From: an uncultured Clostridia bacterium
GTDB lineage: Bacteria > Bacillota > Clostridia > TANB77 > CAG-508
Length of the DNA stretch: 64,000 nt
NCBI GenBank assembly: GCA_944390405.1
Contig: CALXPS010000001.1
Coordinates: 18,300-82,299, forward strand
Direction of reading: 5' to 3'
Each line of letters starts with the position of its first letter. Position 1 is the stretch's first letter. The notes below the pieces were generated by a model that had not been told where the DNA came from, searched no databases, and saw only the letters and a program-made list of their open reading frames with translations. Below are positions 2,303 to 13,098 of this stretch, one piece after another. The position numbers and the translations under genes were made by a program.

Positions 2303-3055
2303 ATGAGCTTAATAGATTCTTATGATGAGAGTGAAGAAGTTGTTAAGGCTGAAATTTTAACTAGAGGACAAAAAAAACTTCCAAAGACTGCAATTGTTTG
2401 CTTTAAAAAAGAATTGATAGATGTTGTGAAGAATAAAGAAGAATTTGAGGAATATAGTGAGATTAATGTATGTGGCGAGGAAATTAAAATATATAAAACT
2501 CAAATTGGTAAAAAAAATGTTATTTTATATAGAACTTTAGTTGGAGGCCCCGCAACAACTTCAATGATGGAAGAAATTCATGCTAGAGGAGTTGAGAATT
2601 TTATATTTTTTGGATCTTGTGGAGAGCTTATCTCAGATATGAAAAAAGGAGCATTTATTATACCAACAGAAGCATATAGAGATGAGGGAACAAGTTACCA
2701 TTATATGCCAGTATCAGATTTTGTAAAAGTAAAAACAGCAACACGATTAGAAGAAATTTTTAAGAAGAAAAATATTAATTATGAGTTAACAAAGACATGG
2801 ACTACAGATGCTTTATATAAAGAAACTAGAAATAAAATAAAAAAAAGAATAGAAAGTGGTTGTAAGGTTGTAGAGATGGAATGTGCATCTATTATGGCTG
2901 TTGCAAATTCAAGAAATATTAATGCTTATCAGTTTTTATATTCAGATGATACACTTGCTGGAGAAACTTGGGATATAAGAACTTTAATAGAGGATAGAAG
3001 TTTTATATTAAAAGAGTGTTTGAAGATTGCCACTGAAATTGTTGAAGAAATATAA
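2303..3055 (+). CDS. PNP/MTAP-superfamily phosphorylase-like protein (nucleoside phosphorylase family 1)
   Basis: GGPATTSMMEE and VEMECAS motifs resemble phosphorylase family-1 active-site regions; RBS AAGGAGG. Confidence 0.45.
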   Translation: MSLIDSYDESEEVVKAEILTRGQKKLPKTAIVCFKKELIDVVKNKEEFEEYSEINVCGEEIKIYKTQIGKKNVILYRTLVGGPATTSMMEEIHARGVENFIFFGSCGELISDMKKGAFIIPTEAYRDEGTSYHYMPVSDFVKVKTATRLEEIFKKKNINYELTKTWTTDALYKETRNKIKKRIESGCKVVEMECASIMAVANSRNINAYQFLYSDDTLAGETWDIRTLIEDRSFILKECLKIATEIVEEI

Positions 3056-3208
3056 TAAATTAAAAAATTATTCAACAAGTAAAAAAAAATCAATTATCTT
3101 GGAATTATATTCATTGGAGTAGAGTTAATGAAAGTGTAGAAAATATGTATAAAGATAATTAATATCTTACAAGTGATTTAATAACAATGCAACAAAGGAA
3201 ATATACAT

Positions 3209-3288
3209 CAAATTATAAAAAAATGAGTCTGTTTCCCATTTTAAAGTGGATTAAATAACAGACTCAAAATTTTAATGCATTTTATCTA
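3209..3288. repeat. 80-bp direct repeat copy 2; on the minus strand it reads stem-loop plus TTTTTTT, a rho-independent terminator of cotJC
   Basis: Reverse complement gives GAGTCTGTT-loop-AACAGACTC followed by ATTTTTTT directly after the cotJC stop (3282-3284). Confidence 0.8.
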
Positions 3289-3887
3289 TTGAACATACAA
3301 TTATTATCATTCATATAAAACTTCTTTTCAGCTAATTTTTCTTGAACACCACGTAAAGCTTCACCAAATCTTTGGAAGTGAACTACTTCTCTTTCTCTTA
3401 AGAAACGAAGAGGGTCGATGACATCTGGTTCATCTTTACAAAGGTCAATTAATTTTTCATATGTTGCACGAGCTTTTTGTTCGGCAGCTAAATCTTCCTG
3501 TAAATCAGCGATAGGATCTCCTTTGACAGCAATATATGCAGCAGTAAATGGATTACCAGCAGCAGATTGTGGATATACACCTAGACCATGGTCAGTGTAA
3601 TAATCTCCTAATCCTTCTTTTTTTATAGTTTCTGCATCAACACCCTCTGTTAATTGATGGACAATAGTTCCAACCATTTCTAAGTGTGCTAATTCTTCTG
3701 TACCAATATCATTTAAAATAGCTTTAGCTTTTTGATCTGGCATACCAAATCTTTGTGATAAATATCTTAAAGAAGCAGCAAGTTCTCCATCAGGTCCACC
3801 ATATTGAGATATAATAAATTTTGCAAGTTTAGGATTTGGGCATTTAATATTTATAGGATATTCAAGAGTTTTATTATAAGTCCACAT
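3282..3887 (-). CDS. cotJC: Spore coat protein CotJC (manganese catalase family); the ORF track extends to 3914, but the canonical MW start is the ATG at 3885-3887
   Basis: MWTYNKTLEYPINIK start typical of CotJC; Mn-catalase-type EELAHLE / ELxxHE motifs; RBS GGGGGA 8 nt upstream. Confidence 0.85.
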   Translation of the reverse strand: MWTYNKTLEYPINIKCPNPKLAKFIISQYGGPDGELAASLRYLSQRFGMPDQKAKAILNDIGTEELAHLEMVGTIVHQLTEGVDAETIKKEGLGDYYTDHGLGVYPQSAAGNPFTAAYIAVKGDPIADLQEDLAAEQKARATYEKLIDLCKDEPDVIDPLRFLREREVVHFQRFGEALRGVQEKLAEKKFYMNDNNCMFNR

Positions 3888-3987
3888 TAATAATTCCCCC
3901 TTTCCCAAGGCCACCCTTGGTTAATGATAGGAGTATATTTTTATATTATAAATTTTATTGGAGCTGATGAGCATGTGAGATATTAAA

Positions 3988-4023
3988 AATGTGTTCGCTC
4001 TAGTTATAAAAGATGAGGGCAAA
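3988..4023 (+). pseudogene. Fragment homologous to an internal segment of the recombinase gene (zinc-ribbon region, encodes CVRSSYKR then stop)
   Basis: atgtgttcgctctagttataaaagatgagggcaaag matches recombinase 9213-9250 atgtgtttgctctagttataaaagaggaggagcaaag. Confidence 0.4.
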
Positions 4024-4161
4024 GAAAAAAATTATATAAAAAAGCTTTTACAGTCTGATACTCTGAATAAAATTGTTTACGGATAATGATAAGAAAGTGG
4101 AAAACTATTGAAGTAATTATATAAGGAATACATTAGTCATAAAGGATAAGATTTATGACTA

Positions 4162-4280
4162 TTTTTTTATTGTATAAGAAAAATCGAAGATTTTTACGTA
4201 TACAACAAGGTTAAGTTTCCTTGGGCTGTGCATATTTGCGAAGCAAAATGTACATGTGGTGAACCCACTTTTCTTATGAA
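4162..4280. repeat. 118-bp conserved noncoding block copy 1 (T-run, imperfect palindrome GTATAAGAAAAATC-GAA-GATTTTTACGTATAC, then a conserved 70 bp)
   Basis: About 90% identical to 48923-49040; both copies sit directly after a terminator hairpin. Confidence 0.7.
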
Positions 4281-4541
4281 CTGACTATAAAATTAGGTTA
4301 AATGAGAAGTAAGTATATAAATTTAAACAATTAATATAAAAAAATAAATAATAAAGAAAAAATATGTGACTTTATGCAATTTGAATCGTATAACATATGG
4401 AAAAAGTATAAATAACTTTTTATACTTAAGTTTTTAAAGCTATACAATAATTAATTTAAAGTACATAAAAGAAGGCATAAATTAAAATATATAATATAAA
4501 AGGGGGGAGTATGTAAAAATATATCATAAGAAAGAAGATTT

Positions 4542-5111
4542 ATGAAAATGAAAAAAATGTGGATTTTATCTATTTTATTATGTTGTTTATTACTATCAAC
4601 AAGTGTATTTGCTTATAATCCAATTGGAGGGAAATTTTCGAGAGGAGTTAGTAATACGTGTTATTATGTAGATTCTACCGCAAGTGCATATACAACAAGA
4701 ATAAACGCAGCAGCAAATAATTGGGTCAATACTGGTCATGGTTGGAATCCTATATATATGACACCAGTTTCTTCAAGCTATTTAACCCATATGGATTTTT
4801 ATGGAAAGACGACCTCTTTCTGGGGAGATTCTAACATAAGAGGAGAAACGAGAATGTTTACTAATTCTGGTCAAGATATTACAAGTAAAGCACATAACAC
4901 AAATTGGATGTATGCAGAAATATATGTAAATACAAGTGTGGTGTCAACTAACACAATTCAAACTCAAGGAACATTTGCGCATGAAATGGGGCATGCTTTT
5001 GGATTAGATCACGTATCAAATGTAAATGCTTTAATGCATAGATATTCAAATGAAAGATTAACACATGTTGTTTCATTAGATGAACATAATGGAATTAATG
5101 CATTATATTAA
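4542..5111 (+). CDS. Secreted zinc metalloprotease (metzincin, snapalysin/matrixin-like)
   Basis: N-terminal signal peptide; HEMGHAFGLDH = HExxHxxGxxH zinc-binding motif. Confidence 0.75.
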   Translation: MKMKKMWILSILLCCLLLSTSVFAYNPIGGKFSRGVSNTCYYVDSTASAYTTRINAAANNWVNTGHGWNPIYMTPVSSSYLTHMDFYGKTTSFWGDSNIRGETRMFTNSGQDITSKAHNTNWMYAEIYVNTSVVSTNTIQTQGTFAHEMGHAFGLDHVSNVNALMHRYSNERLTHVVSLDEHNGINALY

Positions 5112-5123
5112 GAGGAGGTTTAT

Positions 5124-5846
5124 ATGAGAAGTAAAAGATTGATAATTTTTATAATTATAGTTTCTACTATCATAGTTGTAAGTAGTATTGCTATTTTAGG
5201 TAAACAAAAATCTAAAAATGTAATCGCCAAAGATAATAAAGAACAGATTAATATAAACGATAATTCAAGTATTGAAAAAAATATAGAGGATAATGTCGTT
5301 TTAACATTAGGTTCAAATTATGATATATATAAAATGAGTGAAGAAGAAATTATGAACGACGACAAATATTATGTTGTAATAGGAAAAGTTACATCTATCG
5401 ATGGTGCAACAAATTACAGCGAAGCGACTAACAAATACACAACAATATTTACATTAGGCAAAATGGAAGTGCTGAAAGATATAAAAGGCAATATGCAGAA
5501 TAATTCAATAGACATAATGAAAAGAGGCGGACAGATTTCATTAGAACAATATGAAAAAAGTTTAAGTGAAAGTCAAAAGCAAAAAGAAGCATACCAAAAT
5601 TTATTAAATAAATATTCTAAACAAAAAGCAACTGTTAAGGTAGAAGCAAAAAGTTTAGATGAAGTTGATATCGAATTGAATAAAGAATATTTATTTGTAT
5701 TATCATATAATGAAGACTATAATAGATATTTAATTAATGCCTTCCCATATGCATTAAGAGAGGTAAAAATAGAAGGTTCAAAAATCTATTATAAAAATAA
5801 CGAGACAAAAACATTCGAAGAATTTTCTAATTTAAATGATATGTAA
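5124..5846 (+). CDS. Membrane-anchored hypothetical protein (N-terminal TM/signal anchor), translationally coupled to the metalloprotease
   Basis: AGGAGG RBS 7 nt upstream; hydrophobic N-terminus IIFIIIVSTIIVVSSIAIL; no recognisable domain. Confidence 0.5.
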   Translation: MRSKRLIIFIIIVSTIIVVSSIAILGKQKSKNVIAKDNKEQININDNSSIEKNIEDNVVLTLGSNYDIYKMSEEEIMNDDKYYVVIGKVTSIDGATNYSEATNKYTTIFTLGKMEVLKDIKGNMQNNSIDIMKRGGQISLEQYEKSLSESQKQKEAYQNLLNKYSKQKATVKVEAKSLDEVDIELNKEYLFVLSYNEDYNRYLINAFPYALREVKIEGSKIYYKNNETKTFEEFSNLNDM

Positions 5847-6015
5847 ATAAATAAAATTTTGACATTGTTTAGCTAGCATGCTAAAATGGAATAACAAGTA
5901 ATATTAAAGTGGTATTTAATTTTATAATGCCACTTTAATAAGAAAAGACTAATGTAGGTCTTTCTTATGTCACTTTTTTGTTGTACACAGAAAATTTTAT
6001 ATAGGGGCAATATAA

Positions 6016-7680
6016 TTGTCAAATTTTCCTATACAATGCAAAAGCAATCATGTTAAGATAAATGGAGATAAGATGGAAGAAGATAAATATTTATATAAGG
6101 AATTTATTAATGGAAATAATCAAGCTTTTGAACAATTAATTATGAAATATAAAACAAATATTATTTATTTTATAACCAGATATGTAAAAAGTATTGAAAT
6201 TGCAGAAGATATTTTTCAAGATGTTATTATATATATATTAGAAAAAAAAGAAAGATATAATTTTAAATATTCTTTGAAAACATATATGTATATGATAGCA
6301 AAATCAAAATCTCTCGACTATATAAAGAGTGAGAAACAAATTGGAAATATAGAGGATCAAGAATTCCATGAAGGAGAGTTATTAGAAGAAATAGTAATTA
6401 GTAAGTATAGAAAAAAAGAAATTCAAAAAGCAATAAATAAATTACCAACAGACTATCAAATAGCAATATATTTAACACAGATAGAAGAACTTTCGTATAA
6501 AGAGACTGCTAAAATTATGGAAAAAACGGAAAGACAAATAAAGACACTTGTATATAATGCTAAGAAGAAGTTGAAAAAAATATTTATAGAAGAAAAATTA
6601 GTTGAGGTAAATGGAACAAAAATTATAAAAGTTTTTATGATGTTTATTATAATGATAGTTATGTTTACAGGAATATGCTATGCTACGTTTAAAATATATA
6701 TGAAGATAACAGGGAAAGCTAGTATAGTACCTACATATACTGAAAAGATTGGAAATACCGATATGAATGTAATTTGGGGAGGAAACTTTCAAATAGCTTG
6801 GAATGAATTTATTGAAACTGTAATCGGAAGAGAGATTAAATTTACAGATAAAGATTCTGAAATAGTAAGAGAACTTAATAAAAAAACATTTACCAAAAAT
6901 ATGATATCTAATGATGGATATTATTTAAAAATAGGAAAAACATCGCCAAATTTAAAAAATGAGATAATACAAGAAATAAGCGAAAAGTTTGGATTGGAAA
7001 ACATAGAAAATTTAAATAAAGTAAATTTTGAAGAAAAAGATGGCAGTTATACTATTTATTCACTATTATTTAAAAAATTTGAATTTTTAACATCTTTTGA
7101 TAGATTATCAAATCAAAATTTTGGAAATAGTATGGAAGAAGTAAAATATTTTGGTATAAATAATGCCAGTGATGAAAACTTAAATAAAAACTTAACAATC
7201 TTATTTTATAATGGAAAAGAATATGCTGTAAAATTATTTACAAAGGGAAATGATGAGATAATTTTATATAGAACTGACTCTAATGAACCATTTGACAAAA
7301 TTTATAATAATATGTTAGATAATTCTAAAACATTTGCAGGAGACAAAGACTTTAAAAAATCAGATGAACTAAGAATTGCATATATAGAAGTTGATACATT
7401 AATAAATTATGATGAATTATGCGGACATTTTATAGAAGAAGAGGAAGGTGTTTATATAACAAATGCGTTACAAAATATTAAATTTTCTTTTAATGAAAGT
7501 GGGGTGAACTTGACAAGTACAGCAGACATTAAAGCATCACGTAATTTCGAACTTAGTGAAAGTAGGTATTTTGATTATAGTGATTCATTTGTAATTTTTA
7601 TCAAAGAAAGAGAAGAAAATATTCCGTATTTTGCATTAAAGGTAGATAATACAGATATATTAGTATCAGCAGAACAATAA
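6016..7680 (+). CDS. Membrane-tethered sigma-70-family protein: N-terminal sigma region 2 + region 4 (ECF/TcdR-like, ~190 aa), one TM helix, ~340-aa extracytoplasmic domain; likely start ATG 6073
   Basis: Region-2-like YLYKEF...IFQDVIIYILEK and region-4 HTH LSYKETAKIMEKTERQIKTLVYNAKKKL; TM FMMFIIMIVMFTGICYATF; GGAG 5 nt before ATG 6073. Confidence 0.6.
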   Translation: MSNFPIQCKSNHVKINGDKMEEDKYLYKEFINGNNQAFEQLIMKYKTNIIYFITRYVKSIEIAEDIFQDVIIYILEKKERYNFKYSLKTYMYMIAKSKSLDYIKSEKQIGNIEDQEFHEGELLEEIVISKYRKKEIQKAINKLPTDYQIAIYLTQIEELSYKETAKIMEKTERQIKTLVYNAKKKLKKIFIEEKLVEVNGTKIIKVFMMFIIMIVMFTGICYATFKIYMKITGKASIVPTYTEKIGNTDMNVIWGGNFQIAWNEFIETVIGREIKFTDKDSEIVRELNKKTFTKNMISNDGYYLKIGKTSPNLKNEIIQEISEKFGLENIENLNKVNFEEKDGSYTIYSLLFKKFEFLTSFDRLSNQNFGNSMEEVKYFGINNASDENLNKNLTILFYNGKEYAVKLFTKGNDEIILYRTDSNEPFDKIYNNMLDNSKTFAGDKDFKKSDELRIAYIEVDTLINYDELCGHFIEEEEGVYITNALQNIKFSFNESGVNLTSTADIKASRNFELSESRYFDYSDSFVIFIKEREENIPYFALKVDNTDILVSAEQ

Positions 7681-7749
7681 AATTTTCATTGTTTTTATTT
7701 GTTTTGAGCAATTTTTTTCTTAATATATTTATTTTAATACAGTTTATTA

Positions 7750-7800
7750 AAACACCAAAAGCAAACAGTAGAGCATGTTTGTTTTTGGTGTTTTTATTTT
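7750..7800 (+). terminator. Rho-independent terminator after the sigma-fusion gene
   Basis: AACACCAAAAGCAAACA...TGTTTGTTTTTGGTGTT stem followed by TTTATTTT. Confidence 0.6.
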
Positions 7801-7952
7801 ATCTAATTTTAAAACAAAGTAAAAAATACAATAAAAAAACAAAGTACATCTGATTTTCAAATCTTGAGAGTAATGCATGAACAAGAAATCAATAAAATGG
7901 AAAAATTAATAATAAAATTTTAAGGAGCATATAGTTAATTAGAGGTGATTTC

Positions 7953-8096
7953 ATGATTAATAAATACGAAGAAATATATGCAAAAGATAAATGTGATATA
8001 ACACAGTTAGTTCAAGATTGGATAGATGAAAATATAAGTGAATTTTATTGCAATAATTCAGAAACAGAGTTAAAATATAACCAAATAGATAGATAG
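7953..8096 (+). CDS. Small ORF (47 aa) immediately upstream of the recombinase; possible directionality factor
   Basis: RBS AGAGGTGA 5 nt upstream of the ATG; no detectable homology; position only. Confidence 0.25.
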   Translation: MINKYEEIYAKDKCDITQLVQDWIDENISEFYCNNSETELKYNQIDR

Positions 8097-8131
8097 TTAT
8101 TATAAATAATGCTTAGGAAAGGGGAAAATGA

Positions 8132-9736
8132 ATGTATGAGTTATATAATAACTATAATAATTACTTTATGAATAATACTGATAAAAATATTATATGGAAT
8201 GTAGGAATTTATACTAGATTATCAAGAGAAGATGAGAAGGAACCACAATTCAACAAACAATCAGAAAGTATTGAAAATCAGATAAAATTTTTAAATGGAT
8301 ATGTGAAATGTCAAGGCTGGAATATTGTTAAAACATATATAGATGATGGATTTAGCGGAACTAATTTTGATAGACCAGATTTTAAAAATATGATTTCAGA
8401 TATAGAAAACAAAGTAATCAACATGGTAATAACAAAGGATTTGTCAAGACTAGGTAGAGACTATATTGATACAGGCTATTATATAGAAAAATACTTTCCC
8501 TCTAAACATATAAGATATATAGCAGTTAATGATAATGTAGATACTTTTGATGCTAATAATAGCAATAATGATATGACTCCATTTAAAGCTGTTACAAATG
8601 ATATGTATGCCAAAGATACTTCAAAAAAAGTTAGAACAGCATTAATGACTAAAGCAGTAAATGGAGAGAGTATAAAGCCATTTCAACCATATGGTTACAA
8701 GAAGGATCCAAACAATAAAAATAGAGTGATTGTTGACAGAGTAGTTTCAGAAAATGTAGTAAGAATATTTGATATGTATAAAGCAGGCAAAACAAAGAAA
8801 GAAATATGCAATTATCTTAATGAAAACAATATAGTTACGCCATTAAAATATAAGGAAGAAACAACAAATTATAGAAACCCAAATAAAAGATTCTATATAT
8901 GGACAAATACGATGATAACTAAGATATTAAGGGACAGAATTTATACAGGAGATTTAGAACAACATAAACATACAAAGATAAATTATAAAGTAAAGAAATC
9001 GATAAAAGTAAATCCTCAACAGCATATTATTATTGAAAACAATCACGAACCAATAATCGATAAAAATACATTTTATACTGTACAGAAAATGCTGGACAAA
9101 CAAGCAAATGAATGGAATTATACATCTAGTAAACCACATTTACTTAAAGGTTTAGTTTTTTGCAGTTGTGGAGCAAGAGTCACATATAATAAAAATCATG
9201 GACAATATTTCAGATGTGTTTGCTCTAGTTATAAAAGAGGAGGAGCAAAGTTTTGTAATAATATCCAATATTTAAGAGAAGATGAACTGATTTCTAAAGT
9301 ATTAGAAAGTCTAAAAATCAATGTTAATAAATATCTAGATTACCAAAGACTAGACTGTAATAGAAGGAACAATAAAAAGAAAGATACTAAAACTGATGAA
9401 ATAAAAAAACAAATAGAAATATTAGATAGAAAAATAAAAACAATTTATGAGGACAAATTAAATAATATTATTTCAGTAGAAATGTTTGTAACTTTGTCAA
9501 GTAGTTATGAAAAACAAAAATCTGATTTAAAAAACATGCTAGAAAATATTAACACAAAAGTGGAAGACGAAAAACAGATACCATTTAAAAGTATGGAAGA
9601 TTACATAAAAGAAGTACTGCAGTTTAATAATCCAGACAAAGTGGATAGAAACTTATTATTAAAATTAATAGACAAAATTGTAATCGAAAATAAAGAAATA
9701 AAAAGTATTACTTATAATTTTAGCATTCCTAGTTAA
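8132..9736 (+). CDS. Large serine recombinase (SpoIVCA/CisA-like)
   Basis: Resolvase catalytic domain YTRLSREDE with Ser nucleophile and DLSRLGRD; recombinase domain; zinc ribbon CSCG...CVCS; C-terminal coiled coil. Confidence 0.9.
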   Translation: MYELYNNYNNYFMNNTDKNIIWNVGIYTRLSREDEKEPQFNKQSESIENQIKFLNGYVKCQGWNIVKTYIDDGFSGTNFDRPDFKNMISDIENKVINMVITKDLSRLGRDYIDTGYYIEKYFPSKHIRYIAVNDNVDTFDANNSNNDMTPFKAVTNDMYAKDTSKKVRTALMTKAVNGESIKPFQPYGYKKDPNNKNRVIVDRVVSENVVRIFDMYKAGKTKKEICNYLNENNIVTPLKYKEETTNYRNPNKRFYIWTNTMITKILRDRIYTGDLEQHKHTKINYKVKKSIKVNPQQHIIIENNHEPIIDKNTFYTVQKMLDKQANEWNYTSSKPHLLKGLVFCSCGARVTYNKNHGQYFRCVCSSYKRGGAKFCNNIQYLREDELISKVLESLKINVNKYLDYQRLDCNRRNNKKKDTKTDEIKKQIEILDRKIKTIYEDKLNNIISVEMFVTLSSSYEKQKSDLKNMLENINTKVEDEKQIPFKSMEDYIKEVLQFNNPDKVDRNLLLKLIDKIVIENKEIKSITYNFSIPS

Positions 9737-9740
9737 AATC
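9681..9740. repeat. ~60-bp direct repeat copy A (3' end of the recombinase gene); partner at 10545-10601
   Basis: gaaaataaagaaataaaaagtattacttataattttagcattcctagttaaaatc versus gaaaataaaaaataaaaagcattacttataattttagcattcctagtcaaaata. Confidence 0.75.
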
Positions 9741-9820
9741 TAATAAAATATTGGTAATTTTTAATAAAATATGTTATACTAATTATATATTATAAAAGGA
9801 ATAAAAAAGGAGGAGATAAT

Positions 9821-10171
9821 ATGTCTAATGTACCAGCCAATATTAGCAATATAATAGATGAATTTGTTAAAGGCGTAAATGCAATATTAGGAGATAGAGT
9901 TAAGAAGATAATACTTTATGGCTCTTATGCTCGAGGAGATTATGATAAAAGTTCAGATATAGATATTATGATTTTAACAGATTTAAACGATGATGAAATT
10001 CTTGAATATCGAGAAAAAATATTAGACTATGCTTATGATATTGAATGGAACAATAACTTTGATATTGTTGTATCTCCTTTAATAAAAAATATAGATAAGT
10101 ATAATAAGAGAATAGATGTAATACCATTTTATATGAATATTCAAAGAGAAGGAGTGGTTATAAATGGATGA
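9821..10171 (+). CDS. Minimal nucleotidyltransferase (MNT) domain protein, antitoxin-like
   Basis: GSYARGDYDKSSDIDIMIL = GS...DxD nucleotidyltransferase motif. Confidence 0.75.
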   Translation: MSNVPANISNIIDEFVKGVNAILGDRVKKIILYGSYARGDYDKSSDIDIMILTDLNDDEILEYREKILDYAYDIEWNNNFDIVVSPLIKNIDKYNKRIDVIPFYMNIQREGVVING

Positions 10172-10565
10172 TGAAGTTACACCATTAAGCTTTGCAAGAT
10201 ACAGATTAGAAAGAGCAAAAGAAGATTTAAAAGCAGCCGAGCTATTATACAAAAATGATAGTTTCTTAGCTGCAAATAATAGAGCATATTATGCAATCTT
10301 TCGTGCAATTAGAGCTGTATTGGCTTTAGAAAGAGTAGATTTTAAAAGGCATAAAGATGTGATTGGATATTTTAATCATCATTATGTAAAAACAGAGATT
10401 TTTCCAAAAATGATAAGTAAGAAAATAGGACAAGCAAGTAAAGTAAGAGAAGATAGTGATTACGATGATGAGTATATTCCAGATGCAGAAAAAACAAAAA
10501 TTCAAATTGATACAGCTAGCGAAGTAATAGAATTAGTAGAAAAATACATAGAAAATAAAAAATAA
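10164..10565 (+). CDS. HEPN domain protein, partner of the MNT protein (8-nt overlap)
   Basis: Overlapping start ATGGATGA; helical protein of HEPN size; R/H-rich stretch FKRHKDVIGYFNHH. Confidence 0.55.
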   Translation: MDDEVTPLSFARYRLERAKEDLKAAELLYKNDSFLAANNRAYYAIFRAIRAVLALERVDFKRHKDVIGYFNHHYVKTEIFPKMISKKIGQASKVREDSDYDDEYIPDAEKTKIQIDTASEVIELVEKYIENKK

Positions 10566-10601
10566 AAAGCATTACTTATAATTTTAGCATTCCTAGTCAA
10601 A
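10545..10601. repeat. ~60-bp direct repeat copy B at the right end of the element; overlaps the HEPN stop and the element-derived cotJB tail
   Basis: see 9681-9740. Confidence 0.75.
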
Positions 10602-10979
10602 ATAGGAATAATTTACTCCCAAATTGAACCAAGGCCATGGTTCTTCAAGCCATCTCCACTTATTGCAAGGGTAATGAATTGTAAGAGGACCATAAACTTT
10701 TTGATATTTATCCATAATTTCTCTTAATTGTTTTGAATAATGGTTATGCAAACATAGAGCTCTTCTATCATCTGGATGTGTATTTAAATATAGAGAAAGT
10801 TCAATAACAGCAAAATTCAATTCTTTAATTTTCATAATCATTTCTTCACGCTTGCAGTCTCTAGGACATTCTTGCATTTCAGGTAATTCCATAGTAGGTA
10901 GAGCTTCTTCAGGAGTACTATTCTTACCGCAATCGCACTTATAATTACAATTTCTTTTTTCATTACAAGACTCTAACAT
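10593..10979 (-). CDS. cotJB: Spore coat protein CotJB, 3' end interrupted; the last 11 codons (FNLGVNYSYFD) are supplied by element DNA
   Basis: CotJB family motif ELNFAVIELSLYLNTHPDDRRAL...YGPL; native C-terminus (PWPW-ERGNY-stop overlapping the cotJC ATG) lies 6.7 kb away at 3888-3913. Confidence 0.8.
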   Translation of the reverse strand: MLESCNEKRNCNYKCDCGKNSTPEEALPTMELPEMQECPRDCKREEMIMKIKELNFAVIELSLYLNTHPDDRRALCLHNHYSKQLREIMDKYQKVYGPLTIHYPCNKWRWLEEPWPWFNLGVNYSYFD

Positions 10980-11329
10980 TTATTACATCCCTCCCCAATA
11001 GAATTTCTTCTTCTTAAATATTCGTTTTCAGCCATGGATTGACCAGGCATATAAGGACTAACAAGTTCTGGGAATATAGTACCCATTTTTAGTCCTACAC
11101 AAGGTATAAAGGTTCTATCCATGGCTTGAATAGGTACATAACTTTGTGCTAAAACAGGATCTTCAGGAAATGCAATATATTCATCAAACCCACATTCACA
11201 GTCGTCATACATACCAAGAGTATTTTCAACATCACAACAAGTTTCTTCGAAACAATTTTCATAGTTCGAAGTTACATTATTATTATTCCAGTTGCTTTTA
11301 CATTTACAGCATTTTCTATACATTAACAA
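10973..11329 (-). CDS. cotJA: Spore coat-associated protein CotJA
   Basis: LAQSYVPIQ...GTIFPELVSPY matches the CotJA family core. Confidence 0.75.
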   Translation of the reverse strand: MLMYRKCCKCKSNWNNNNVTSNYENCFEETCCDVENTLGMYDDCECGFDEYIAFPEDPVLAQSYVPIQAMDRTFIPCVGLKMGTIFPELVSPYMPGQSMAENEYLRRRNSIGEGCNKC

Positions 11330-11490
11330 TTCCTCCTTTTTTTAATGTATACTACATAATATGTTAGAAAAATACAGAAAGTGACAAATCTTAGATATTC
11401 AATATTTCCTTCAAACTATTGATTTTTTCTAGCAAATTGATTATAATATTAAAGAAGTAATAATTTCCAAAAGAGAGGGGAATGTAAAAA

Positions 11491-13098
11491 ATGAATAAAG
11501 ATATACTTATAGGGGGAGCATGGCCATATGCTAATTATTTTATGCACATAGGACATTTAGCAGCACTTTTGCCAGGAGACGTATTAGCAAAATATTTTAG
11601 AGGAAATGGAGATAATGTAATATATGTATCAGGGACAGATTCACATGGTACACCAATTACACAAAGAGCTAGCAAAGAAAACGTTAGCCCAGAAGTAATA
11701 GCAACAAGATATCATGAAGCTTTTATAAAAAGTTTTGGTGCTATGAACTTTGAATATGATATGTACACAGCAACATTTACAGAAGAACATAAAAAAATGG
11801 TACAAGAGTATTTCTTAAAACTTATAGAAAATGGATATATTTATGAAAAAACAGTAGAACAAGACTATTGTGAAAACTGTGGTAAATTTTTGTCAGATCG
11901 AGAAATTATAGGGAAATGTCCAAAATGTGGTGGAGAAGCTACTGGTGAACAATGCGATAATTGTCTAACAACATTAAATGCGGATGAAGTTGAAGACAAG
12001 CATTGTAAAGAATGTGGAGAACAAACGGTACTTAAAGGTAACAAACATTTATACTTTAAATTATCAGCATTCCAAAAACAAATAGAAGATTTAATACAAG
12101 CAAGAGAAACTACATGGAGAAAACAGGCAGTAGGAGAATCAAAGAAATTTTTACACAATGGATTAATAGATAGAGCAGCAACAAGACAATTAGATTGGGG
12201 AATAGAAGTACCAGTAAAAGGATATGAAGATAAAAGAATATATGTGTGGATAGAAGCTGTATTAGGATATTTAACAACAGCTAGACGAGTAGCTAAAGAA
12301 AGAGGAATAGATTTTGAGAAATTCATGAGTAAAGACAATCCAAACTTATCAACATACTATGTTCACGGAAAAGATAATATTCCATTTCATACAATCATAT
12401 TTCCAGCATTAATGCTTGGTATAGGAAATGGATATCAATTACCAAAATATATAGTATCAAGTGGATATATTAATATGAATGACACAAAAATGTCAAAAAG
12501 TAAAGGAAATTTAGTAACAGTTGATGAGTTAGTAGAAAAATTCGATGTAGATAGTATAAGATATTATATGATTTCAAATGGACCAGAAAAGAAAGATACA
12601 AATTTTACAGAAGAGTTATTTGTTCAAGCACACAACAAATTCTTAGTTGGAATGTTAGGAAACTTTGTAAATAGAAATTTATCATTTATAAATAAAAAGT
12701 TTGATGGAATAATAAAAGAAGCAACAATAGATCCTGAAATAATAAAAATGACGGAACAATTATACAAAAAAACAGGAAACCTAATAGAACAAGCAGAATT
12801 AAAAGCTGCGTTAGATGAAGTTTTTGAGTATATTGGATATGCAAATAAATATTATGATGAAAAAGAACCATGGAAACAATGTAAAGAAAATATAGATGAA
12901 TTTAATAATATAACATATACATGTGCATATATAATTGCAAATATATCTAACTTAATAGCACCATTTATACCAAACACATCACGCAAAATAAAAGAAATGC
13001 TAAGTTTACCAGAATTTAAATGGGAACCAATTAATTTAAAGGGTGATATAAAAATTAATAATCTAGAGCTTCTATTTAATCGAATAGACTTAAAATAG
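11491..13098 (+). CDS. metG: Methionine--tRNA ligase (short form without C-terminal tRNA-binding domain)
   Basis: HIGH motif MHIGHL; KMSKS motif KMSKSKGN; MetRS zinc knuckles CENCGK...CPKCGG...CDNC...CKECGE. Confidence 0.8.
   Translation: MNKDILIGGAWPYANYFMHIGHLAALLPGDVLAKYFRGNGDNVIYVSGTDSHGTPITQRASKENVSPEVIATRYHEAFIKSFGAMNFEYDMYTATFTEEHKKMVQEYFLKLIENGYIYEKTVEQDYCENCGKFLSDREIIGKCPKCGGEATGEQCDNCLTTLNADEVEDKHCKECGEQTVLKGNKHLYFKLSAFQKQIEDLIQARETTWRKQAVGESKKFLHNGLIDRAATRQLDWGIEVPVKGYEDKRIYVWIEAVLGYLTTARRVAKERGIDFEKFMSKDNPNLSTYYVHGKDNIPFHTIIFPALMLGIGNGYQLPKYIVSSGYINMNDTKMSKSKGNLVTVDELVEKFDVDSIRYYMISNGPEKKDTNFTEELFVQAHNKFLVGMLGNFVNRNLSFINKKFDGIIKEATIDPEIIKMTEQLYKKTGNLIEQAELKAALDEVFEYIGYANKYYDEKEPWKQCKENIDEFNNITYTCAYIIANISNLIAPFIPNTSRKIKEMLSLPEFKWEPINLKGDIKINNLELLFNRIDLK

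Follow-up and report, generated by a model that had tools for sequence, protein, structure and literature searches.

A 6.7-kb serine recombinase element at the 3' end of cotJB in an uncultured gut Clostridia bacterium: a candidate for regulated excision during sporulation

Structure of the split cotJ operon and its attachment sites

The window analyzed here, a 64-kb stretch of DNA from an uncultured gut Clostridia bacterium whose source is probably a metagenome assembly, carries a cotJ spore-coat operon that is interrupted by an insert of 6,724 bp. On one side of this insert, which we call the cotJB element, lie cotJA (10973-11329; Pfam CotJA, E 3e-12) and a split form of cotJB encoding 128 amino acids (aa), cotJB' (10593-10979; Pfam CotJB, E 3e-26), whose start is overlapped by cotJA. 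On the other side lies cotJC, encoding a protein of the Mn-catalase family (3282-3887; Pfam Mn_catalase, E 2e-55). All three genes are on the minus strand, and the insert contains seven open reading frames (ORFs), every one of which is on the plus strand and hence antisense to cotJ. The Pfam assignments and both junctions agree with the initial annotation of this DNA, which had proposed that a serine recombinase element in the 3' end of cotJB separates cotJA and cotJB from cotJC.

The junctions themselves were also confirmed as that annotation had read them from the minus strand. CotJB' ends in ...LEEPWPW-FNLGVNYSYFD*, where residues 1-117 are native and the final 11 (FNLGVNYSYFD) are the translated P' arm of the element. 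Directly upstream of cotJC, a different frame encodes QGWPW-ERGNY*, and its TAA overlaps the cotJC ATG (TAATG). The integrated cotJC retains the ribosome-binding site (RBS) as well as the final five cotJB codons and the stop (3884-3901). It has neither the cotJA promoter nor translational coupling to cotJB, because 6.7 kb with seven opposite-strand element genes lies between. A candidate sigma-E-type promoter of cotJA, TCACTTT-14 nucleotides (nt)-CATATTAT, was located at 11356-11384 on the minus strand; its box recurs ahead of cotJA in most loci of our survey, which covered the 56 species representatives closest to the window.

The 9-bp repeat CCAAGGCCA was found exactly twice in the window, at 3905-3913 (attR core) and at 10629-10637 (attL core). 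Its expected count in the window is 0.15, and two matches were reached in 1 of 100 shuffles. The initial annotation had likewise given two copies of a 9-bp core and placed the first correctly, with the second at 10628-10636, a position that had to be corrected. The proposed crossover TG is on the minus strand and corresponds on the plus strand to CA at 10636-10637 in attL and to CA at 3912-3913 in attR. The element ends carry the P' half-site gccttggttcaatttgggag (10616-10635, minus strand) and the P half-site ctcctatcattaaccaaggg (3914-3933, minus strand). Joined together, they give an attP of the form ctcctatcattaaccaaggg-TG-gccttggttcaatttgggag, an imperfect palindrome, as had been proposed, with 20-nt half-sites that are symmetric at 14 of 20 positions about the central TG. 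The junction sequences are GAACCATGGCCTTGGTTCAATTTGG for attL, AACCAAGGGTGGCCTTGGGAAAGG for attR, GAACCATGGCCTTGGGAAAGG for attB and AACCAAGGGTGGCCTTGGTTCAATTTGG for attP.

The insertion point is the first Trp codon of the conserved PWPW stretch, five codons ahead of the cotJB stop. A homologous P' arm, TTTGGGAG, was found in the related loci L044, L052, L111 and L114, and in L044 and L052 the sequence common to attL and attR is reduced to TGG. TG was taken as the crossover dinucleotide because the centre of the palindrome falls on the TG of the first PWPW Trp codon in every related element. The longer 9-bp core of the window is due to the resemblance of the P' arm to the B' arm, and the foreign CotJB tails (FNLGV, FGLGV and ILGV) are the conserved P' arm read in frame.

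Removal of the insert in silico gave a CotJB of 122 aa that ends in PWPWERGNY and is coupled to cotJC through TAATG. With this reconstituted protein as the query, about 110 of the 120 top-ranking homologues of CotJB were found to end in PWPWE(R/G)xx, mostly in exactly PWPWERGNY, and in uninterrupted relatives the cotJB stop overlaps or abuts the cotJC start (0-4 nt). The few that have a different tail (PWASFKMRVK, PWPSFNLG..., PWVSFGLGEI) represent additional cases of interrupted cotJB. The initial annotation had named in advance an observation that would speak against its reading, namely relatives whose cotJB naturally ends in the same tail and is not coupled to cotJC; among the C-termini compared, none ended in FNLGVNYSYFD unless a related element was present, which favors insertion.

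The exact joined CotJB of 122 aa is present in a public protein collection (P0122), where it comes from a single contig, L081, of run SRR17071103. Across 1,039 bp this contig matches the window without a single mismatch: it runs through positions 11084-10629 and continues at 3913-3322, the segments sharing the 9-bp core, so that exactly 6,724 bp are cleanly deleted. The homologues and this contig together uphold the earlier expectation that precise excision restores PWPWERGNY and the coupling to cotJC. Three CotJB alleles were found in both joined and split form with identical first 117 residues, P0122/P0121 (the allele of the window), P0125/P0124 and P0131/P0134, and all three pairs belong to the same 90% cluster. 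At least 22 contigs, some of them longer than 100 kb, carry the split form with the same junctions; they come from several projects, and the samples behind ERZ28614028 and ERR4158210 are examples of its occurrence.

All joined-form contigs (n = 14, including L081, L092-L100 and L120-L122) are shorter than 2 kb, and split-form contigs reach 115 kb. The idea that the short joined contigs were assembled cotJABC mRNA from mother cells was rejected, as L092 to L094 run past the operon. A split-form contig with the same 'k87' name prefix, possibly from the same pipeline, is equally short, and the short length is probably an assembly effect.

A 78-bp direct repeat (98.7% identical) is present at 170-247 and 3211-3288. 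It spans the cotJC stop and a hairpin just downstream, the likely cotJC terminator. Its copies flank a 3-kb cassette encoding an ABC transporter ATPase and permease and a PNP_UDP_1 phosphorylase, and this cassette is missing from the element-free strains L092 and L093.

Gene content of the element and its recombination unit

The recombinase gene (8132-9736, plus strand) encodes a large serine recombinase of 534 aa with Resolvase, Recombinase and Zn_ribbon_recom domains (PF00239, PF07508 and PF13408, each above its cut-off), and the motifs YTRLS and SRLGRD are found in the translation. It matched a PHROGs integrase family with an E value of 6e-93. The gene is full length, and its product is 100% identical across several independent contigs. 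The nearest solved relatives are the catalytic domains of TnpX (2mhc, E 3e-27) and TP901-1; in NCBIfam, XisF was the best match and CcrB also matched, both far below their cut-offs. The label 'SpoIVCA class' given earlier was therefore too specific for what is a generic large serine recombinase.

Immediately ahead of the recombinase gene lies an ORF of 47 codons (ORF47; 7953-8096, plus strand), a candidate recombination directionality factor by its conserved position beside the recombinase. A candidate mother-cell promoter, TAATAAT-14 nt-CATATAGT, lies just upstream of the ORF47 RBS (7907-7935, plus strand). The recombination unit is divided from the cargo genes by a strong intrinsic terminator with a 19-pair stem followed by a T run (7749-7794, plus strand). 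ORF47 matched no known family in Pfam, NCBIfam or PHROGs. Homologues with the motif LxxLxQ(D/E)W(I/L)(D/N)EN were found upstream of the recombinase in L044, L052 and L046, and a profile search with ORF47 returned 57 clusters of proteins of 43-58 aa. In 9 of 9 places examined, the homologue was about 30-45 bp upstream of a serine recombinase of 516-536 aa, and in all nine this pair was located between cotJB and cotJC; the nine places represent at least three unrelated chromosomal backgrounds. Tiny directionality factors that are unrelated in sequence are part of the rdf-int 'SSR unit' of phi3T, SPbeta and gin (PMC6957869, PMC5595907). The pair of ORF47 and recombinase matches this unit, in which ORF47 would be the directionality factor.

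Three cargo genes, all on the plus strand, precede the terminator. The first encodes a metzincin-type (M10-like) metallopeptidase (4542-5111; Pfam Peptidase_M10, E 3e-8) with an HExxH region and an N-terminus that by eye resembles a signal peptide. The second encodes a protein of 240 aa (5124-5846) with a hydrophobic N-terminal stretch, also judged by eye, and no match in Pfam, NCBIfam or PHROGs. The third encodes an extracytoplasmic function (ECF)-type sigma factor of 554 aa with a long C-terminal extension (6016-7680; Sigma70_r2 and r4_2, TIGR02937).

Beyond the recombinase gene lie genes for an MNT nucleotidyltransferase, a putative antitoxin (9821-10171, plus strand; Pfam NTP_transf_2, PF01909, E 8e-13; a match to NCBIfam MntA was below its cut-off), and a HEPN-domain protein, a putative toxin (10164-10565, plus strand; Pfam HEPN, PF05168, E 3e-20). 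The two genes adjoin with an 8-nt overlap, the layout of a HEPN/MNT toxin-antitoxin system, and form a putative pair. A 52-nt copy of the 3' end of the recombinase gene (10552-10603, plus strand; 90% identical to 9688-9739) follows them. Because the two copies of this repeat flank the cassette, the MNT-HEPN pair appears to be a secondary insertion between the recombinase gene and attP. In sister elements, the place of MNT-HEPN is taken by a RelE-like pair. In the non-coding left end, 39 nt (3980-4018) are 87% identical to the recombinase-internal stretch 9205-9243 and are possibly left over from an earlier copy of that gene.

No phage structural, packaging, lysis or replication genes were found among the element proteins with PHROGs, Pfam and NCBIfam. 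PHROGs recognized only the integrase and the sigma factor, with no capsid, tail, terminase or lysis family, and a prophage reading was rejected on these grounds. No relaxase or mobilization domain was found in the seven ORFs with Pfam and NCBIfam, and there was no Rfam match to a structured RNA within 3000-11600.

Related elements, recurrence in the cotJ operon and spread

Related elements occupy the same site in L044, L045, L052, L046, L040, L042, L111 and L114. The recombinases of L044, L046, L052, L111 and L114 are 53-71% identical to that of the window and up to 96% identical to one another. The cargo is wholly different between elements and includes RelE-like versus MNT/HEPN pairs, phosphatases, surface proteins and, in L111, reverse transcriptase and Avd genes. 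The L111 cargo (2399-6645) consists of a reverse transcriptase, an Avd-like gene and MutS_I-domain genes, together with an insertion sequence element; the first three are possibly a diversity-generating retroelement.

The orientation of the recombination unit also varies. In L046 (17244-18900) and L111 (9001-10900), the small ORF and the recombinase gene lie beside attR and read toward cotJC, and in the window (7953-10637) they lie beside attL and read toward cotJB. The P and P' arms stay in place while the unit differs, so the gene module has been flipped relative to attP.

In the survey, cotJB was interrupted in 7 of the 56 loci and cotJC in a further 17, and at least one element was present in 23 of the 56 (41%). 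The insertion sites in cotJC are DIGTEE|LAHLEM (about codon 65), YYTDHG|V (about codon 100) and QEDLAA|EQKARA (about codon 136). Split cotJC genes were found in L002, L003 (10366-17599), L009, L019, L021, L025, L027, L034 and others, and four further contigs terminate at one of the cotJC sites. L044 (1000-9300) has one element in cotJB and another in cotJC; L114 (1000-12100) and L117 (3300-10800) each have two recombinases and a fragmented cotJC. In L009 (16849-18376), the recombinase of the cotJC-inserted element is split into two frames, either a decaying copy or a sequencing error.

Recombinases of the cotJB type shared 53-96% identity and those of the codon-65 type 57-91%, against 21-40% in comparisons across types. 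There are thus four recombinase lineages and four sites in the operon, one at the cotJB end and three within cotJC, and lineage tracks site. The cotJC fragments have no internal stops, and joining them gave the canonical protein in all 5 cases checked. Insertions in the middle of this gene, in its conserved metal-binding helix, cannot be neutral, and the preservation of the split fragments suggests that the rejoined cotJC is still under selection. Since four lineages use four sites and the fragments are intact and rejoin perfectly, the pattern fits regulated excision rather than neutral landing. No other indirect evidence speaks as strongly for regulated excision, or against seeing the cotJB site as a mere landing pad.

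Horizontal spread was seen in two loci. In L102, the interior of the element is 100% identical to that of the window, and the flanking cotJB and cotJC are only 93.9% and 95.7% identical. L007 represents a different species (metRS 88.7% and cotJB 83% identical to the window), and the 63 bp inside attL are 100% identical and the HEPN gene 98% identical. Taken together with the joined and split alleles, these comparisons show repeated gain or loss of the element, each time precise, and a recent crossing of a species boundary, which argues that it is active and not a relic. The near-identity of the element (window 3914-10628 versus L007 and L102) was observed despite flanks that are 4-17% diverged, and in an element with no recognizable transfer or mobilization genes.

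Proposed excision, competing explanations and significance

The regions upstream of the small ORF could not be aligned between element subfamilies, except for the RBS and a box, CATA[TAG]A[N][CT]T, which lies 6-8 nt before the RBS (21 nt in the cotJC-type unit of L117). Its sequence is CATATAGT in the window and in L046 and L111, CATAAACT or CATAAATT in L044, L052, L114 and L117, and either CATAGATT or CATAAACC in two elements of the cotJC type. The chance of a CATA motif in such a position is about 0.5% per placement. In the window, TAATAAT lies 14 nt ahead of the box, and we take TAATAAT-14-CATATAGT to fit the sigma-E consensus of B. subtilis. Phylogenetic footprinting of the region upstream of cotJA in the 56 related species gave the promoter TCAC(A/T)TT-14-CATA(T/A)(T/A)AT, and in two of these species the -10 box of cotJA reads CATATAGT or CATATATT. 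In B. subtilis, cotJ is described as being under sigma-E control (Henriques 1995, as cited in PMC5025042), and the cotJA box of this clade is probably of the same type. With matching CATA-type -10 boxes, the recombination unit appears to carry the same type of promoter as the cotJ operon, which is suggestive of mother-cell timing.

We consider that the window contains a 6.7-kb non-phage integrative element that was inserted through its large serine recombinase and undergoes regulated excision in the mother cell, a reading to which we give a probability of about 0.7; mother-cell-specific excision is the mechanism that these data support best. Observed directly are the anatomy of the insertion, its att sites, the intact recombinase, the precisely joined natural alleles and the horizontal spread; the role of ORF47, control by sigma-E and restriction to the mother cell are inferred. 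In the integrated state, which is that of the window, CotJB has a foreign tail of 11 residues and cotJC lies 6.7 kb away. During sporulation, the small ORF and the recombinase gene would be transcribed from the sigma-E-type promoter in the mother cell at about the time when the cotJ promoter fires. The recombinase, probably aided by ORF47, would then recombine attL with attR at the central TG, releasing a circle that bears attP and rebuilding cotJA-cotJB-cotJC exactly. The operon would be rebuilt in the terminal cell only, and the forespore chromosome would retain the element.

Several observations weigh against this reading. CotJB' retains 117 of 122 native residues and might still function. 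TnpX-like recombinases can excise their elements without a directionality factor or a developmental signal, as in Tn4451. The -35 region of the proposed small-ORF promoter is not conserved, and the timing and cell type of excision are deduced from the promoter box and the operon-wide insertion pattern. No sample among those compared contained both the joined and the split form, and the joined alleles could come from strains that simply have no element. Finally, no attP circle junction was found in IMG/VR or the JGI metagenomes; a pattern common to attL and attP had no match there either, so these collections do not contain the element itself and the negative result is uninformative.

The main rival reading is an ordinary site-specific element that uses the conserved 3' end of cotJB as a landing site and has no developmental role, which we regard as unlikely. 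Such an element would excise sporadically or in response to another signal, and it would be tolerated because CotJB' works and cotJC is either dispensable or transcribed from another promoter. Insertion only five codons from the stop leaves CotJB nearly intact, the element has spread horizontally, and its nearest solved relative is the transposon recombinase TnpX; furthermore, the joined and split alleles come from different samples, as expected if some strains never had the element or lost it. However, cotJC is left without a promoter behind 6.7 kb of opposite-strand genes and a strong terminator. Unrelated recombinase lineages also hit the middle of cotJC in this clade, where the intact, exactly rejoining fragments argue for selection on the rejoined gene. 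The recombination unit has a conserved CATA-type box like that of the cotJA promoter and not TATAAT, and no transfer or mobilization genes were found with Pfam, NCBIfam and PHROGs, both of which also speak against this rival.

A dead, fixed insertion, with a relic recombinase and an operon that stays split for good, was the fallback of the initial annotation and is very improbable. Apart from the two-frame recombinase of one related element, L009, nothing points to it. The recombinase of the window is full length with its catalytic motifs and is unchanged in several independent contigs. Furthermore, precise empty sites exist in three allelic backgrounds, and the element is better conserved than its flanks and also occurs in another species. 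The probable metagenomic source might raise the suspicion of an assembly artefact, in which unrelated DNA was placed between cotJB and cotJC by a chimeric contig. This can practically be dismissed, as the same structure and junctions recur on at least 22 contigs, which stem from several independent projects and assemblers, and related elements with homologous att arms are found in other species.

In a full-text literature search, no report of an element in cotJB was found, in line with the initial annotation, although cotJC has already been cited as a target: work by Abe and colleagues published in 2013 (Mol Microbiol) reportedly named cotJC, gerE, yaaH and yhbH as frequent integration targets, according to a preprint that cites it. 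Intervening elements have been studied experimentally in sigK, spsM, spoVFB, spoVR, gerE, kamA and yabG (PMC4191935, PMC5595907, PMC6957869, PMC10747680, PMC5025042). Like skin and gin, the cotJB element has a target of the mother-cell type (judged by B. subtilis cotJ), its own recombinase, an att core with inverted repeats, and precise restoration of the target.

The closest analogue is gin, in gerE of Bacillus cereus ATCC 10987. Both are non-phage elements in a mother-cell sporulation gene, with a large serine recombinase and a tiny directionality factor (GirC and GirX, 42 aa, in gin; a candidate here), and both have a 9-bp common core flanked by inverted repeats and restore the reading frame upon excision (PMC5595907). 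They differ in that gin is 28.6 kb long, has three recombinase genes and splits a 74-codon regulator in the middle (PMC5595907), whereas the cotJB element is 6.7 kb long with one recombinase. The latter lies five codons from the end of cotJB, has the uncoupling of cotJC as its main effect, carries a putative toxin-antitoxin pair and is found in uncultured gut Clostridia. Sporulation-specific excision and the function of GirX were established experimentally for gin (PMC5595907), while their counterparts are proposed here.

In the skin elements of sigK (B. subtilis, SpoIVCA; Clostridioides difficile, CD1231 and CD1234), excision by a large serine recombinase likewise rebuilds a mother-cell gene, and a small directionality factor confers cell-type specificity (PMC5025042). 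Different recombinases and sites are used within sigK across lineages (PMC5025042), and the cotJ operon shows the same pattern. The skin elements, 14-48 kb in length, are degenerate prophages and interrupt a regulator that is required for sporulation (PMC5025042), whereas the target of the cotJB element is a coat operon, probably a non-essential one, and the element has no phage genes. The prophages of the SPbeta/phi3T type (spsM, kamA) and yin (yabG) have an rdf-int unit beside an att site, as does the cotJB element; in phi3T a sporulation promoter switches on the directionality factor, and in all of them the recombination units are exchangeable modules on varying cargo (PMC4191935, PMC6957869, PMC10747680). 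They are full or nearly full prophages that also excise lytically, in contrast to the small and variable non-phage cargo of the cotJB family.

The XisF/fdxN element of Anabaena heterocysts also relies on a large serine recombinase to restore an operon, again in cells at the end of their differentiation; it belongs to a different phylum and developmental program and needs XisH and XisI, and the resemblance is one of kind only. Tn4451 and Tn4453 encode TnpX, whose catalytic domain is the closest solved relative, and are small clostridial elements that excise as circles. TnpX needs no directionality factor, recombines at a GA crossover and accepts many similar sites for insertion, and Tn4451 and Tn4453 carry a mobilization gene. 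The cotJB element differs from them in its TG crossover, its single conserved site and the lack of a mobilization gene detectable with Pfam and NCBIfam.

If this reading is correct, the cotJB-cotJC junction would be added to the short list of sporulation genes split by excisable elements, with the uncoupling of a translationally coupled downstream gene, and not the destruction of a protein, as the main effect. Recurrent hits in about two-fifths of the related gut species support the view that mother-cell genes are safe harbors for selfish DNA. The several sets of recombinase, small ORF and att site are candidate orthogonal tools for genome engineering, and the locus provides a testable case in organisms that are hardly cultured. 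More broadly, we see about an even chance that the cotJ operon in this clade is a multi-site hotspot of programmed rearrangement, with at least four orthogonal lineages that would each have a partner ORF, a sigma-E-like promoter and a site of its own. Around 40% of the species would have at least one element, some would need two excisions per mother cell, and the elements would move between species without transfer genes. In that case, developmental genome editing of a coat operon would be routine in these bacteria and not a curiosity, and it would provide a natural set of orthogonal triples of recombinase, partner and att site.

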